Origin: Escherichia coli
GTDB taxonomy: Bacteria > Pseudomonadota > Gammaproteobacteria > Enterobacterales > Enterobacteriaceae
Direction: 5' to 3' (one strand)
DNA: 64,000 nt
Assembly (NCBI RefSeq): GCF_003991155.1
Contig: NZ_CP031293.1
Shown here: piece by piece, positions 2,017 through 50,094 of the stretch
How positions within the stretch are numbered: position 1 is the first letter of the stretch
Layout of the letters: each line of letters opens with the position of its first letter
Translations under genes and position numbers: made by a program
The notes under the pieces: generated by a model
What the model was told of the DNA's origin: nothing
Databases searched by the model: none
The model's input: only the letters and a program-made list of their open reading frames with translations

Positions 2017-2940
2017 TCACTCATCCCGCGCCGGACGATTTATTTTTCTGGCGCGGCGACGGGAATCCATTGAAATCAAAATCACTGATGACAGAATCAG
2101 AAGCGTTCCCAGCCAGTCCGGTAATGTGAATGTGATCCCCAGCAACAGCAAAGAGAGCAGCGCGCTACTTAATGGTTCTGCACAGCTCAAAATGCTGGCT
2201 TTTGGACCGCCAATTAATTGTGCTCCTTTCAGGTACAGACTAAATGTCAGGGACGTACCAATGACCACCAAATAAAAAAACGCCAGAATCAAACTGCCGT
2301 TAACGACAAAGTTTGTCCCTTGTCTGGCATAAAAAGGCAACAGAATCAGACCGCCGATCAGCATACTCCAGCCGACGACAGGCAACGTGCCATAGCGGGC
2401 AATTAGCGTTGAGGGATAGGTGGTATAGAATGCCGCAGCAAATGCCGAGGCAATGCCCCAGAATAACGCGGCAGGAGAGATCGATAATGACGTCGGATTA
2501 CCGTGTGTCACCAGTAAAAAAGTCCCGACCAGCGATGTCAAAATAGCGCAAAAAACCAGAATGCCCGGGCGCGATTTACGTACCAGTGAGAACCAGGCGA
2601 CGATAATCGTCGGTGAGAGGAATTGCAGCACCGTTGCCGTGGCTGCGTTCGATTTTTCGATGGTTAGCAAAAAAGTGAGCTGTACGGTTAGCGCGCCAAC
2701 CACGGAAAAAATCAGCAGACTAATGGCATCTTTGTGATTGTTAATAATAGAAAAGATTTTATCGCCATGAACAAATGACAGCGTCAGCAGAATCAAACCG
2801 GCGAATATCAAACGCGTCATAGTCAAAAACTGCGACGACATCTGGCTTTGCTCCATGATGTATTGCGCGCAGACCCCTGAACTTCCCCACAACACGGCGG
2901 CAATCAGAACGTTCAGCATCCCCTTTCTGGTGGAACCCAT
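2017..2940 (-). CDS. yicL: EamA/DMT-family inner membrane transporter YicL
   Basis: 307 aa polytopic membrane protein; position between nlpA and setC as in E. coli. Confidence 0.8.
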
Positions 2941-3050
2941 TTTTCCCTCTGCATACTGTTTTGTCGTTTATGTATGCAGGCATGATAGCAAAAATGGCGA
3001 GGATGGCTCTGTTTGCGCCACGCCGATTTTTCTTAGCCCAGACTGGTGAG

Positions 3051-4235
3051 CTAAATATCTTTAATAAACAGCAGGCAAATCATCGCAATACCCAACATCC
3101 CTATCGCCAGCCAGAACAACGCGTGGTAGCTCCAGATTTCAACCATAATTCCGTCAACAGAGCCGGCGATAATCCAGCCGACGCGTGAGGTATTTGCATA
3201 TAACGTTGTCGCAGAGCCTATTTTTTCAGGCATCAGATCCTGAAAATAAAGCATGCCGATACCACAGAGAATACCAAGGAAGATGGCATTAAGAATTTGC
3301 AATTCCAGCTCAACTGCCGGAGTCGTCGCCATGAGTACGCTGGCGTAAAAACACATTCCACTCACGATAGCAATGAGCATTAATAGCCGCTTGCCAATAC
3401 GTTTCATGTAATAGCCTGCGATTAACATCATCGGAATTTCCAGACCGGCAGCGATACCAATCATTTCTCCAGCCAGTTTATCGGTTAGATGCAGTTCATC
3501 AATAATAAATAGCGGCATATTTATCATGTAGAGATTATTCGCCGCCCACATCATTGAACAGACCACAAAAAGTAGCCGCGTATCCCGCTTCCTGTGGGTG
3601 GAGGGTAAAATTTCTATGGGTTGGGTAACGACAGGAATATTTCTTTGTATTGATGGCAAAAACAACCAGACTATCAGTCCGCAAACAACAAATGCGATGG
3701 CAGCGGTGAGATACATCACTTTAAAACTAAATCCCATTGCCAGTTCATAAGCGAGCGGTGGCCCGATAACCCAGGCAAGCGAGATCTGAGCACGTAAAAA
3801 TGTACTGAACATGACCGTCTCACGGCCTGTTCTGTCGGCGTGTTCACGGGCGAGGGCGAACATTTGCGGGTTTGCAGTGGAAGCAAAACTACTCAGAAGT
3901 ACGCCCGTTGAGAGGAGAATGAAGTAGTTGCGATTCCACGCAAAAAGCGTGCAGGCCAGCACTCCAAATAAGCAACATAGCAGGATCAGTAATTTACGGT
4001 CGCCTTGTTTATCGGAGTGCCTTGCCAGAAATTGACTGACCAGAATTCCCATAATAGCGCTACCGGTGAAGAAAAAACCTACCATTATAGGACGGGCTTT
4101 CAGTTCATCTGCGAGGAATATACTTAGGGTGGGAGTCTGGAGAGCGCCCGCAATACCCGTCAGAAAGGCGACAAGTAAAAATGCCGCGGCAGTGAGATCA
4201 AGTATTTTTGATGGAGTAGTAGCCGTTTTTTGCAT
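3051..4235 (-). CDS. setC: Sugar efflux transporter SetC (MFS)
   Basis: 394 aa MFS protein matching E. coli SetC; canonical neighbour of selC. Confidence 0.85.
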   Translation of the reverse strand: MQKTATTPSKILDLTAAAFLLVAFLTGIAGALQTPTLSIFLADELKARPIMVGFFFTGSAIMGILVSQFLARHSDKQGDRKLLILLCCLFGVLACTLFAWNRNYFILLSTGVLLSSFASTANPQMFALAREHADRTGRETVMFSTFLRAQISLAWVIGPPLAYELAMGFSFKVMYLTAAIAFVVCGLIVWLFLPSIQRNIPVVTQPIEILPSTHRKRDTRLLFVVCSMMWAANNLYMINMPLFIIDELHLTDKLAGEMIGIAAGLEIPMMLIAGYYMKRIGKRLLMLIAIVSGMCFYASVLMATTPAVELELQILNAIFLGILCGIGMLYFQDLMPEKIGSATTLYANTSRVGWIIAGSVDGIMVEIWSYHALFWLAIGMLGIAMICLLFIKDI

Positions 4236-4689
4236 TCTTCTGAATCACCGGGCGACAAAATATAACTGAGTTACAAATAAGTACCAGTCGAATGAGTATT
4301 GTATTAAGAATTTTTGAGTATCGCTGATACAACCAGAAAGCAATGCTAGCGCAATATTATAGGGCCAGCAATTGAGATTATTAGCAAAAGCATGTTAAGA
4401 GTTAATCACCGAATTTATATATTAATTATAGTAAGACAATGAGCTATTTTTGATAGTAAAAATAAAACAAATTTATTTGATATATTAAATGAACAAATTA
4501 ATCTTGATGGCAGTCTGATTATTGGTGAAGTTTACAGGTCAGTTTTTTTCGCCAGCGGTTAAAGGAATAGAATCGTCGTATAAAAAAAGGGTGTTCTGGG
4601 GCGTGTAAAACAACATCTTCACCTTAATGGCGATACAGTTGGCTGAGAGTCAGCAGGGGGGCAAATCACCTGCAAATAAACACGGCGCA

Positions 4690-4810
4690 TGCTGGCGCGA
4701 ATATCGCGGATGCGTTCGAGGACAGAAGAACCGACAGGCGGATTCTTCAGCCGCTCATCGTCCATCACAAAACCTTTGACCAGGTATTCCTGAAGCCGAT
4801 TGAATATTGA
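4690..4810 (-). pseudogene. Fragment of a RhuM-family (virulence protein RhuM-like) gene
   Basis: Minus-strand translation ...NRLQEYLVKGFVMDDERLKNPPVGSSVLERIRDIRASMRRV contains the LERIRDIRAS motif remembered from RhuM-family proteins; no intact ORF. Confidence 0.35.
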
Positions 4811-4872
4811 GCAGTAGAAAATATCTGGATTGACAGTATTACAAGGGATTGGAGAACGTCAGAAGAGGCATT

Positions 4873-4897
4873 TTGGCGGAAGATCACAGGAGTCGAA
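4873..4897. repeat. attR-like direct repeat: partial copy of selC 3' end (TTGGCGGAAGATCACAGGAGTCGAA)
   Basis: Exact 25-bp match to 49999..50023 (3' end of selC); additional AGAAGAGG shared just upstream. Confidence 0.8.
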
Positions 4898-5032
4898 TAT
4901 GAGAGTTAATGTTTTGATTTTAAATGATTAATACGTGTTGGATAAATGAGTAACCCCCATAAGAACCCCCAAATGACTTTGCGTAAGGGAATGAGGCTAA
5001 AATACACAATCGAATCAATTCTTAGAGCTTTA

Positions 5033-5878
5033 TTATGAAGGTAACACTCCCGGATAGTGTTTCGCAATAATCTCATTAAGTCTGTCAACCAGTTCTGGTT
5101 TCCTGAACGTGATGTGCGCGGAGCCCTTCTTAAAGTATCTGATGCTGAACATCTCATCTTCATAGTCCTCTTTACCCTGAACTGAGTGGATGTGATCATC
5201 CAGACGAATAGTGATGTTTTCCCGGTTGTCGGGGATCGGTTTGCCGCTGAACAGGTGTAGCATTCTTTCCAGATCGGCAAGTCGATCTGCCTGTTGCCCG
5301 GTGATAAGATGAAACCCCCACCGGTCCCACCTCACCAGGTTGTTGACGATAATTTTACTGCCAAATTTACAGGGCGAGTTGGTTTTGTAATCCCAGCCCA
5401 GTCCTCTGAAAACGTTGATCACCCCTCGCTCAAACACCTCATCCTTATTCTGGTGCAGTTGTTCAAATGTGCTCAGAATGTTCGCTTCATTGATTTTCGG
5501 AAAATTATCATATTCCAGTGACCGGTACCATGTATCACGGGCCTGTGCATCCATTAAGGAAAGCATCCCTGAACGTTGCATCAAGTTTCGCCAGATTTCA
5601 CGGTCAAGGTTCCGGGTGATGGCTTTCATTGCGGTTTCCGGTTTTTCCATCAGCCAGCAACCGCAGCGAAAATCCTGTTTCATCGCCCAGTCCAGGGCGG
5701 TTTTACCTCCAATACTTTCTGTCAGTACTGAGATTTCTGCCAGTTGCCGGATAAGTGTGTCGATTTGCAGCAGCGCACTCTTTCGTACAGCCAGAATGTG
5801 GCGGATACTGGTTGAGCAGATAACGTCCGTATGCCCGTTGACCAGTTCCGGGCGGGAGATTGTGATATCTGACATCAT
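5033..5878 (-). CDS. Conserved island-end protein, probably DUF4942 family
   Basis: 281-aa ORF at the integrase-distal island end downstream of the CbtA module; family assignment from memory. Confidence 0.55.
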   Translation of the reverse strand: MMSDITISRPELVNGHTDVICSTSIRHILAVRKSALLQIDTLIRQLAEISVLTESIGGKTALDWAMKQDFRCGCWLMEKPETAMKAITRNLDREIWRNLMQRSGMLSLMDAQARDTWYRSLEYDNFPKINEANILSTFEQLHQNKDEVFERGVINVFRGLGWDYKTNSPCKFGSKIIVNNLVRWDRWGFHLITGQQADRLADLERMLHLFSGKPIPDNRENITIRLDDHIHSVQGKEDYEDEMFSIRYFKKGSAHITFRKPELVDRLNEIIAKHYPGVLPS

Positions 5879-9134: not shown

Positions 9135-9953
9135 TCAGCGCAGGCTCTCCAGTAGCGTTTCTGCCATCACCCACAATGCGCGATTGAGCTTAATGTCGGT
9201 GTCGATGCTGTGAATGGCACGGGTGTGGATACGTTTTCCTCTGGCACTGCGACCGGAAATTCCGCCTTTCAGCATATTCTCCTGGATGGTCTGATAAGTA
9301 CTCCACAGGTCCTTACCGTAATCCTCCCGGCGTCGTGGCGTCAGAATGTCGGTAGTGGTGACGGGCTGATGTTCATCACCATAACGGTAAGTCAGCGCCG
9401 CCTGTGCCAGCGCCTGGCGTGCCGGTGGCGGCAGGACCAGCGACTGCATGGCATCACGCTTTTCCTCAATCCGGTCAAACACGCCCACCACTTCGTAAGC
9501 ACCTTCTATGACCCTGTCCACCACGTTTCCCCGGTGTGGCACCCGGACTTCTCCCAGCGACTGACCGCAGACCAGGCCATTGGTACAAATGGCACGAAAA
9601 TATCCGGGTAACATCTGGTAGCTGGATGAACCGTCATGGGAGTTGAGCAGAATAATTTCAGGCACATGCTGACCGGTTATCTGTCCGGCCCGCCGCAGAC
9701 GCAGCATATGTTTGGTATATTCCCGGCGGCTCTGGTCGCGCACACGGGTCTGGCAGGCGAAGAACGGCTGAAAGCCTTCCCGCTGCAGATTTTCCAGGAC
9801 GGTGATGGTGGGAATGTACGCATACCGTTCACTGCGGGAGGTGTGCCGGTCTTCTCCAAAAATACTCGGGACGTGGTACATCAGTTCTTCGCGTGTCAGT
9901 GGGCGCTCCCGACGGATCTGATTTACATGACCAAAACGACTGGCTAATTGCAT
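9135..9953 (-). CDS. DUF932-family protein (YfjQ-like)
   Basis: 272 aa; size, position and sequence resemble YfjQ of CP4-57. Confidence 0.65.
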   Translation of the reverse strand: MQLASRFGHVNQIRRERPLTREELMYHVPSIFGEDRHTSRSERYAYIPTITVLENLQREGFQPFFACQTRVRDQSRREYTKHMLRLRRAGQITGQHVPEIILLNSHDGSSSYQMLPGYFRAICTNGLVCGQSLGEVRVPHRGNVVDRVIEGAYEVVGVFDRIEEKRDAMQSLVLPPPARQALAQAALTYRYGDEHQPVTTTDILTPRRREDYGKDLWSTYQTIQENMLKGGISGRSARGKRIHTRAIHSIDTDIKLNRALWVMAETLLESLR

Positions 9954-47205: not shown

Positions 47206-47541
47206 ATGTTTAGAACAGAAGACATCATCGATGAGATAACCCAATGGATTGATTCAAATTTACATAAGCCGCTGAAGATAGAGGATGTTGCTGCGCGGGC
47301 AGGATACTCGAGGTGGCATCTTCAGCGGATTTTTGTGCAGGTGAGAGAAATTAGCCTTGGGAAGTACATAAGAGATACGAAACTTAGACTTGCAGCAAAA
47401 GATCTTATCGCGACTAATGAGCCAGTGATGGTTATCGCCTTTAAATATGGATTCGATTCACAACAAACTTTTACTCGGATTTTCTTTAAAAAATATAAAT
47501 TGCCACCATTGAAATATAGGGTAATGACTCCAACTTATTGA
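47206..47541 (+). CDS. MarA/SoxS-like small AraC-family regulator, C-terminus replaced by IS1 insertion
   Basis: 111-aa ORF with two HTH motifs; its last 7 codons lie inside IS1. Confidence 0.6.
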
Positions 47542-48038
47542 TAGTGTTTTATGTTCAGATAATGCCCGATGACTTTGTCATGCAGCTCCACCGATTTTGA
47601 AAACGACAGCGACTTCCGTCCCAGCCGTGCCAGGTGCTGCCTCAGATTCAGGTTATGCCGCTCAATTCGCTGCGTATATCGCTTGCTGATTACGTGCAGC
47701 TTTCCCTTCAGGCGGGATTCATACAGCGGCCAGCCATCCGTCATCCATATCACCACGTCAAAGGGTGACAGCAGGCTCATAAGACGCCCCAGCGTCGCCA
47801 TAGTGCGTTCACCGAATACGTGCGCAACAACCGTCTTCCGGAGCCTGTCATACGCGTAAAACAGCCAGCGCTGGCGCGATTTAGCCCCGACGTATCCCCA
47901 CTGTTCGTCCATTTCCGCGCAGACGATGACGTCACTGCCCGGCTGTATGCGCGAGGTTACCGACTGCGGCCTGAGTTTTTTAAATGGCGGAAAATCGTGT
48001 TGAGGCCAACGCCCATAATGCGGGCGGTTGCCCGGCAT
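47535..48038 (-). CDS. insB: IS1 transposase InsB
   Basis: 167 aa matching IS1 InsB. Confidence 0.9.
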
Positions 48039-48232
48039 CCAACGCCATTCATGGCCATATCAATGATTTTCTGGTGCGTACCGGGTTGAGAAGCGGTGTA
48101 AGTGAACTGCAGTTGCCATGTTTTACGGCAATGAGAGCAGAGATAGCGCTGATGTCCGGCGGTGCTTTTGCCGTTACGCACCACTCCGTCAGTAGCTGAA
48201 CAGGAGGGACAGCTGATAGAAACAGAAGCCAC
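47957..48232 (-). CDS. insA: IS1 InsA
   Basis: 91 aa matching IS1 InsA (zinc finger CPSC…CSHC). Confidence 0.9.
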
Positions 48233-48522
48233 TGGAGCACCTCAAAAACACCATCATACACTAAATCAGTAAGTTGGCAGCATCACCGAAATATAGAAAC
48301 GCGGAAAGGAGAAAAAAACTTCACCAGCCCATGTCTTAAGTTCTGTCAGTATGGCTACAGCCTGTTTGCTGAGTGGCACAAGGTGTGGTGTTCGAATCTT
48401 GGTTCCCCAATGAGAGTTCAGGCGGTGTGGGCAAATAAAAAAGAAAACATAAATAAAACCATCCGACCGTTGGTGGGGCTGGATGGTTATTCATTATTTC
48501 TATGTCACTGAACTTTCATTCA

Positions 48523-49704
48523 TCAGATCTGCTCAGAAAGTGAATCAATGTAGTCAGCATACCACTGCATCATTTCACGGCGACCATCCAGATACTGGGC
48601 ATGATTATAGGTACCTCTGATAGCGTTTTTATCCATATGAGCTAACTGCATTTCAATCCAGGCAGAATTAAAGCCCTGTTCGTGCAGAATTGTACTCATG
48701 GTGTGTCTGAAACCGTGCCCTGTGAGTCTTCCCTTATATCCTAGTAATTCAATGACTTGGTTTATGCTTTCCTTACTAATTGGTTTGCGAGGATCGTTCC
48801 TACCGATAAAGACCAGAGGATGATGTTTTGAGATTGGTTCAAGTTGCTTAAATAGCGCAATGACCTGCTCAGAGAGCGGCACAATATGAGGTCGCTTCAT
48901 CTTCATTACTTCTGCCGGGATCTCCCATAATTTTGTCTCAAAATCGATATCCTCCCAGCGTGCGAAACGCAATTCTTGAGTTCGTACACCAGTTAGCATA
49001 ATGATTTGAGTGGCTGTCTTAGTGATAATACTTCCGGTATAACCCGCCAGATCATTGAGGAAGTGGGGAAGTTCATTAGCAGTAAGAAAGGGAAAATGTA
49101 CTTTTTTCGGTGTAGCTAAAGCACTGGCAAGATCGGGAGCAGGGTTGTAGTTAGCCCGACCAGTAACAATTGCATAGCGGAACACCTCTCCACAGCGCTG
49201 GCGGACCTTACGCATTTTCTCCAGAGCTCCACGTTTTTCCATTTTACGCAATGCTTCCAGTAACTCCATTGGTTTGATTTCAGCAATAGGGCGTTTGCCA
49301 ATATAGGGAAAAATATCTTTTTCAAAGGTATCAATGATTTCATCACGATAGCGTAATGACCACCGATCGGCTTTTGACTGATGCCATTCTCGAGCAACGG
49401 CCTCAAATGTGTTTTTCAAACTCATTTGCAGCGCGATTTTTTCTTCTTTTTTTGTCTCACCCGGATCGCATCCTGCAGCGAGGATTTTCCTAGCTTCACT
49501 GCGTTTTTCGCGAGCGTCGGCTAGAGTTACATCGGGGTATACGCCAATAGAAAGCATCTTTTCTTTGCCAGCAAAGCGGTACTTCATACGCCAATATTTA
49601 GAACCATTAGTGTTAATGAGTAGATACATACCGCCACCATCAGACAGCTTATAGGGCTTTTCTTTTGGTTTTGCGGTTTTCACTTTAATATCAGTTAACG
49701 CCAT
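48523..49704 (-). CDS. P4-type tyrosine integrase (site-specific recombinase)
   Basis: 393 aa; catalytic HGFRHT and C-terminal Tyr region; immediately adjacent to selC. Confidence 0.9.
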   Translation of the reverse strand: MALTDIKVKTAKPKEKPYKLSDGGGMYLLINTNGSKYWRMKYRFAGKEKMLSIGVYPDVTLADAREKRSEARKILAAGCDPGETKKEEKIALQMSLKNTFEAVAREWHQSKADRWSLRYRDEIIDTFEKDIFPYIGKRPIAEIKPMELLEALRKMEKRGALEKMRKVRQRCGEVFRYAIVTGRANYNPAPDLASALATPKKVHFPFLTANELPHFLNDLAGYTGSIITKTATQIIMLTGVRTQELRFARWEDIDFETKLWEIPAEVMKMKRPHIVPLSEQVIALFKQLEPISKHHPLVFIGRNDPRKPISKESINQVIELLGYKGRLTGHGFRHTMSTILHEQGFNSAWIEMQLAHMDKNAIRGTYNHAQYLDGRREMMQWYADYIDSLSEQI

Positions 49705-49998: not shown

Positions 49999-50023
49999 TT
50001 GGCGGAAGATCACAGGAGTCGAA
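49999..50023. repeat. attL core: 25-bp direct repeat overlapping the 3' end of selC
   Basis: Identical to 4873..4897. Confidence 0.8.
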
Positions 50024-50094
50024 CCTGCCCGGGACCGCTGGCGGCCCCAACTGGATTTGAAGTCCAGCCGCCTCACCGGAGACGACGATCTTCC
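50000..50094 (-). tRNA. selC: tRNA-Sec (selenocysteine tRNA)
   Basis: Reverse complement matches the 95-nt E. coli selC sequence GGAAGATCGTCGTCTCCGGTGAGGCGGCTGGACTTCAAATCCAGTTGGGGCCGCCAGCGGTCCCGGGCAGGTTCGACTCCTGTGATCTTCCGCCA. Confidence 0.95.

Follow-up and report, generated by a model that had tools for sequence, protein, structure and literature searches.

The interval between setC and the genomic island at the tRNA gene selC holds a short stretch resembling rhuM, and it raises the question of whether this stretch is what remains of an insertion at selC that had already decayed when the present island came. We analysed a 64,000-nucleotide stretch of Escherichia coli DNA (contig NZ_CP031293.1), referred to below as the window, and all coordinates are those of the window unless a locus or strain is named. 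The fragment and its chromosomal flanks are arranged as follows.

3051-4235, minus strand: setC, the chromosomal neighbour, encoding an MFS sugar efflux transporter (ORF list, Pfam MFS_1)
4236-4633: AT-rich stretch between setC and the fragment (composition profile)
4634-4801, minus strand: rhuM pseudogene fragment, the same as K-12 yicT, b4653 (Pfam, tblastn, DNA alignment, PGAP)
4797-4858: spacer of 62 bp separating the fragment from the selC-derived repeat

The rhuM fragment is contained in the minus-strand translation read from window 4900-4560, NRLQEYLVKGFVMDDERLKNPPVGSSVLERIRDIRASMRRVYLQVICPPADSQPTVSPLR*. Within it, the translation of 4619-4846 matched the Pfam family PF13310 (Virulence_RhuM) with E = 8.2e-13 and a score of 48.7 bits, against a curated cut-off (gathering score) of 33.7 bits, and by this score the fragment belongs to the RhuM family; residues 16-60 of the translation (window 4667-4801) correspond to profile positions 50-98 of 252. 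A tblastn comparison with a RhuM protein, the check that the initial annotation had proposed for its claim of a RhuM-like remnant, gave a significant match to the intact 345-aa RhuM of E. coli AVS0713 (E = 6e-22), so that both searches bear the claim out. Codons 121-172 of RhuM align clearly and a faint likeness continues to about codon 185; eight residues of the intact protein (VPDYFDEM) are absent. At the DNA level, window 4667-4796 aligns with intact rhuM with a single in-frame gap of 24 bp near 4722/4723; leaving this gap aside, 130 bases align with the AVS0713 gene at about 91% identity. The start codon is missing and the N- and C-terminal parts are both gone, leaving about 55 codons, or some 15% of rhuM. 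Lacking a complete PF13310 domain in an intact ORF, the fragment is a pseudogene and no working member of the family. It had initially been placed at 4690-4810, correct to within about 25 bp, and rightly between setC (3051-4235) and the island boundary (4898).

The fragment itself is already known, being annotated as yicT in K-12 and as a rhuM pseudogene by PGAP. In strain 2016C-3878, whose sequence agrees with the window at 99.998% once one IS1 is set aside, the stretch corresponding to window 4634-4795 is marked as a pseudogene by PGAP ('rhuM: RhuM family protein, incomplete, missing N-terminus and C-terminus'). The K-12 pseudogene yicT (b4653) occupies the interval from selC to setC at a distance of about 108 bp from selC, and both this position in the selC/setC interval and a DNA identity of 97-98% identify the fragment as yicT. 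In the literature searched, 'yicT' occurred only in unrelated senses. When every genome holding at least 80% of window 4640-4858 was counted as a carrier, the fragment was present in about 3630 of 5426 complete E. coli genomes.

On the other side of the spacer lie the att repeat and the present island, whose parts are listed here from the fragment toward selC.

4859-4897: distal att repeat of the present island (sequence reading, alignment with K-12)
4898-49999: present selC island, 45.1 kb (annotation of 2016C-3878, Pfam)
4898-4988: attR-side arm, the conserved terminus of islands of this family, separating the DUF4942 gene from the att repeat
5033-5878: DUF4942 gene, end of the CP4-like module (Pfam)
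48523-49704, minus strand: P4-type tyrosine integrase adjoining selC (Pfam)
50000-50094, minus strand: selC (tRNA-Sec), the integration target (ARAGORN)

Positions 4873-4897 are an exact 25-nt copy of 49999-50023, comprising 24 nt from the 3′ end of selC and one further nt, and the repeat extends imperfectly to 4859 (against 49985). In the alignment, K-12 and the window agree from setC across the fragment as far as 4897; beyond this base, K-12 enters selC and the window enters the island. With the distal att copy (4859-4897) between it and the island, the fragment (4634-4801) therefore stands on the chromosomal side of the selC 3′ duplication and is no part of the present island, which contains no rhuM between 4898 and 49999. 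Because the fragment marks the chromosomal side, the island boundary is fixed at 4897/4898. The fragment is also present in genomes without any island at selC, K-12 among them, and since island-free K-12 has the identical deletion and end points, the decay predates the present island, as the initial annotation had supposed. The O157:H7 match to the last 36 query bases adjoins selC and an integrase.

The far end of the island is a CP4-like module with antirestriction, RadC, CbeA/CbtA, DUF5983 and DUF4942 genes. As annotated in the near-identical 2016C-3878, the cargo is metabolic rather than classical virulence and comprises an otnK/aldolase/DeoR cluster, the tnaCAB tryptophanase operon, and a pseudouridine kinase and a glycosidase with a nucleoside transporter, besides several IS remnants and a CbtA/CbeA toxin-antitoxin pair. 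Relative to 2016C-3878, the window has a 768-bp insertion at 47520-48287, in which a 167-aa ORF (47535-48038, minus strand) matches the IS1 transposase domain; apart from this IS1 copy, which lies in the island near the integrase, window 2949-52626 showed no difference from that strain.

Intact rhuM genes also occur at selC. In 842 of the 5426 complete E. coli genomes, an intact rhuM lies directly after selC, at a distance of 52 bp. In AVS0713, about 40 bp on the 5′ side of this gene resemble the integrase-side arm of selC islands, and about 90 bp on its 3′ side resemble the terminus of the window's island (4898-4988) and are followed by a degenerate copy of the selC 3′ end. Judged by these flanks, the AVS0713-type islet is a collapsed island with rhuM as its sole surviving gene. 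Full-length islands, reached through a 94%-identical RhuM, show rhuM as the last cargo gene before attR, in the order antirestriction-RadC-DUF987-CbeA-CbtA-DUF5983-DUF4942-(87 bp)-rhuM-terminus-attR; one such island, with a misL-like autotransporter after it, belongs to a Salmonella enterica assembly. Window 4898-4988 shares about 79-83% identity with the stretch after rhuM in loci L003 (3291-3377), L005 (1789-1877) and L088-L090 (9066-9153). The window's island belongs to this rhuM-ending island family, yet it is without rhuM. In the S. enterica assembly (L089), attR is directly followed at 9155-9200 by sequence resembling the integrase-side arm (AACTCTCCCGACCTCAACAA) and then by the misL-like autotransporter, which suggests tandem islands at selC there too.

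Two genomes with an intact rhuM islet also carry pieces of a second rhuM. In Escherichia E69, window 4793-4898 (spacer plus att repeat) has a counterpart (L005 1875-1980) with 86% identity over 107 positions; the spacer counterpart lies beyond the outer att of the intact-rhuM islet, and next to it comes the start of a second rhuM (codons 1-14). The E69 backbone shares only about 86% identity with the window, so that E69 counts as a distant lineage. In AVS0713, another rhuM remnant, frameshifted and covering codons about 170-237, lies past the degenerate att. From these alignments, the fragment most likely derives from an older rhuM copy than the intact AVS0713-type gene. The remnants in the other lineages may be pieces of the same old rhuM, and it is their position that points to a common origin, since they barely overlap (codons 121-172 in the K-12 type, about 170-237 in AVS0713 and 1-14 in E69) and no DNA overlap was detectable between the K-12-type fragment and the old AVS0713 remnant. 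The old rhuM would itself have come as the cargo of an earlier insertion at selC. Such an older insertion, already put forward in the initial annotation, is supported by the att-bounded islets, by the rhuM-ending islands and by a tRNA-Sec gene upstream of rhuM in 28 of 80 loci surveyed. We consider it most likely that selC holds layered insertions.

We also searched the setC side for the far end of the older element. Repeat search and local alignment revealed no relic att or island-arm sequence above chance in window 2900-4858 (yicL to the fragment); with no att repeat or arm left toward setC, the outer boundary of the supposed older insertion was not located, which counts against this reading. 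The AT-rich stretch has a GC content of 26-28% around 4300-4600 in the composition profile, and local alignment of 4236-4680 with the intact-rhuM locus of AVS0713 was no better than with shuffled sequences; nor did this stretch show an Rfam hit or a surplus of promoter or terminator motifs. The examined genomes with intact rhuM, AVS0713 among them, lack setC, and none of the 80 rhuM loci contains a SetC homologue. The interval from yicL to the rhuM relic differs by lineage (L003 2182-3396; L005 2061-3278; window 2970-4633): it holds setC in the K-12 type, a 165-aa ORF without a family match in AVS0713 and a 405-aa cysteine-rich ORF without a Pfam match in E69. Homology of the backbone between lineages resumes about 29 bp upstream of yicL.

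Together, these results lead us to the following scenario. An old rhuM would once have lain about 100 bp downstream of selC in the Escherichia ancestor. In the lineage of K-12 and the window, deletions would have taken its leader and codons 1-120, and further deletions would have removed eight internal codons and all beyond about codon 172-185, with the AT-rich stretch and setC now following the truncated end. The leftover was then passed on vertically, drifting neutrally. Much later, the 45-kb island with its P4-type integrase entered the selC 3′ end in this strain, duplicating 24 nt of the tRNA and moving the fragment 45 kb from selC. The fragment is thus very probably a non-functional leftover of an old selC-adjacent rhuM that was later separated from selC by the island.

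A different account would make rhuM an ancient, vertically inherited neighbour of selC in Enterobacterales and the fragment a decayed core gene, which would then be no evidence of an insertion. We surveyed the linkage in the 80 closest RhuM loci of species-representative genomes, and in the 28 loci with tRNA-Sec upstream of rhuM, the two genes lie on the same strand with a gap that is often only 170-900 bp. Such adjacency, at 170-900 bp and without an integrase, was seen in Enterobacter, Huaxiibacter, Pseudescherichia, Pantoea, Morganella, Providencia, Proteus, Hafnia and Photorhabdus. Within Enterobacteriaceae, moreover, RhuM identity is 77-89%, near that of the flanking YicJ, YicL and NlpA (85-92%), and when 22 selC-linked loci from other genera were searched for a degenerate selC 3′ repeat downstream of rhuM, 21 yielded none, the only exception being P. 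vulneris, where a partial selC repeat lies about 110 bp after rhuM. All of this speaks for a resident gene, and the missing repeat fits residency as well as it fits island cargo. Against it stand RhuM proteins of 66-80% identity in Vibrio, Shewanella and Zhongshania, found in defence contexts away from selC; such identity in distant contexts indicates horizontal movement. Segments with rhuM are bounded by att repeats in E. coli, E69, P. vulneris and Salmonella-type islands, the space from selC to rhuM contains integrase fragments in E. albertii, Y. ruckeri, Photorhabdus and Morganella, and rhuM is missing from most E. coli. On balance, descent from a resident core gene seems unlikely to us, and we retain the origin from an insertion.

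The survey also yielded loci of other kinds. In Erwinia sp. ErVv1 and one Huaxiibacter locus (L008 and L010), rhuM lies about 5.5 kb downstream of tRNA-Leu(CAA), which is adjoined by a related integrase of about 44% identity; this arrangement indicates that RhuM islands use another tRNA site too. Two short metagenome-bin contigs assigned to Sphingobacterium and Bacillota (L033, L037) carry tRNA-Sec followed by a rhuM product 78% identical to the E. coli protein and look like mis-binned Enterobacterales DNA. Serratia sp. DD3 has two rhuM loci (83% and 78% identity) about 108 kb apart, each found on four contigs (L023-L026, L047-L050), and these repeats suggest a large segment that is either multi-copy or redundantly assembled.

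If a single generation of rhuM had existed at selC, the fragment could be the form, decayed in situ, of the copy that is still intact in AVS0713-type strains, trimmed by deletions in the K-12-type lineage. Position and orientation agree with this, both genes lying directly after selC in the same direction, as does the identity of about 91% in the 130 bases that align, the gap not counted. That identity is nonetheless lower than the 97% of the backbone. The 62-bp spacer is related neither to the 52-bp island-arm leader nor to the 5′ 360 bp of the intact gene, its alignment score against the 5′ region and leader of AVS0713 rhuM falling within the shuffled range; it matches instead the E69 sequence outside the intact-rhuM islet, ahead of the second rhuM start. 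AVS0713, furthermore, has its separate old remnant past the att copy. Decay in situ of the AVS0713-type copy is accordingly improbable both as the source of the fragment and as a history of one trimmed rhuM generation, and an older copy remains the preferred source.

To follow the decay, variation was compared across the window, K-12 and two more divergent strains. All four have the same fragment end points and the same 24-bp deletion, which indicates one ancestral event. In the 130-bp core of the fragment, 11 variable sites fall 5/2/4 over the three codon positions; setC has 33 variable sites distributed 5/1/27, and the density of variable sites in the fragment is three times that of setC. 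The K-12 yicT allele contains an in-frame TAA that the window allele does not have, and the allele of the two other strains has a 1-bp frameshift. The fragment is a neutrally drifting pseudogene without a function of its own. A present-day function, either as a small protein from the 49-codon ORF at 4619-4768 or as a regulatory or terminator element of selC or setC, would account for the keeping of the stretch in two thirds of E. coli; the same end points are kept in 3630 genomes, and a single weak hairpin resembling a terminator occurs at 4633-4619 on the strand of selC. Vertical inheritance explains this retention, however, and the variable sites are dense and show no codon-position bias, while the K-12 allele has a stop and other alleles have frameshifts. 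Counts of promoter and terminator motifs in a scan around the fragment stayed within shuffle expectation, and the fragment region had no Rfam match. We regard both the protein and the element, and with them a functional reason for retention, as highly improbable. That the likeness to RhuM arose by chance, for which only the shortness of the alignment (about 45-55 residues) could speak, is practically inconceivable given the Pfam E-value of 8.2e-13 above the curated threshold, the tblastn E-value of 6e-22, the blastn hits to this one rhuM segment among dozens of the 80 loci, and the independent PGAP annotation.

Taken alone, the fragment matters little, as an annotated pseudogene with no sign of function. 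It is useful as a landmark for the chromosomal side of the selC attachment site, and it shows that the island is a recent arrival at a site already used. What is mildly new is limited to the layered history and to rhuM as the terminal, sometimes sole surviving, gene of selC islands. The recurrence of rhuM after selC, its last place in the islands and its survival alone when they collapse offer a modest lead on selection for RhuM. It is possible, although we would stop short of calling it probable, that selC in Escherichia received at least three insertions and that rhuM was acquired at least twice, as the old copy and then as island cargo, with RhuM as the selected payload. If so, the old copy would survive as different scraps in each lineage and the second arrival would be the last cargo gene of the P4-integrase/CP4-like islands; rhuM alone would have been kept upon island collapse (842 of 5426 genomes), suggesting that RhuM, a defence candidate, is the payload, and this role would explain the linkage of selC and rhuM across Enterobacterales.

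The nearest relative of the locus is that of K-12, where yicT is the same remnant at the same place, with the same 24-bp deletion and end points; the difference is that yicT lies about 108 bp from selC, whereas in the window the 45.1-kb island comes between. The initial annotation had also tied the RhuM family to the selC-linked SPI-3 of Salmonella, in agreement with the literature: rhuM lies in the variable selC-proximal part of SPI-3 (PMC9251186; PMC3680342), a zone that is often deleted (PMC9251186). By the gene order of SPI-3 (PMC9251186), the fragment shares with it a selC-linked rhuM, since it adjoins the selC attachment site, and both belong to PF13310, which is named after the SPI-3 gene, and to a variable selC-proximal zone; the likeness is at the level of the family. 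The SPI-3 gene is intact, however, and here about 55 codons remain. The other SPI-3 genes (sugR, rmbA, misL, marT, mgtCB) do not occur here, the interval between the fragment and yicL being occupied by the AT-rich spacer and setC, and the locus is no copy of SPI-3. In the S. enterica assembly mentioned above, a RhuM 94% identical to the intact E. coli protein lies at a selC-type island end.

RhuM has been proposed as a toxin domain in restriction-modification operons or neighbourhoods (PMC3710099; PMC9881135). The intact E. coli protein, WP_001280586.1, consists of one PF13310 domain preceded by about 70 further residues at the N terminus. It matched the PADLOC phage-defence candidate PDC-S05 with E = 2.8e-173, whereas NCBIfam and PHROG gave no match and sequence searches detected no solved structure. 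In Zhongshania, rhuM adjoins a PLD-nuclease/helicase/DUF3427 gene. Compared with the RhuM-like proteins of such defence neighbourhoods, the window has only a dead fragment, which has no partner genes. The proposed defence or toxin role does not apply to a fragment of about 15% of the gene.

Genomic islands and their relics are found in tandem or layered at tRNA genes, and the islands at selC include LEE, PAI-I 536 and SHI-2. Unlike the LEE-type selC islands, the island of the window carries metabolic genes and a CP4-like module, with no type III secretion or classical virulence genes. In its architecture, it resembles the layered tRNA islands: it sits in the selC 3′ end, the tRNA end is duplicated, a P4-type integrase adjoins the tRNA, and what is probably the remnant of an earlier element lies distal to the newest island.
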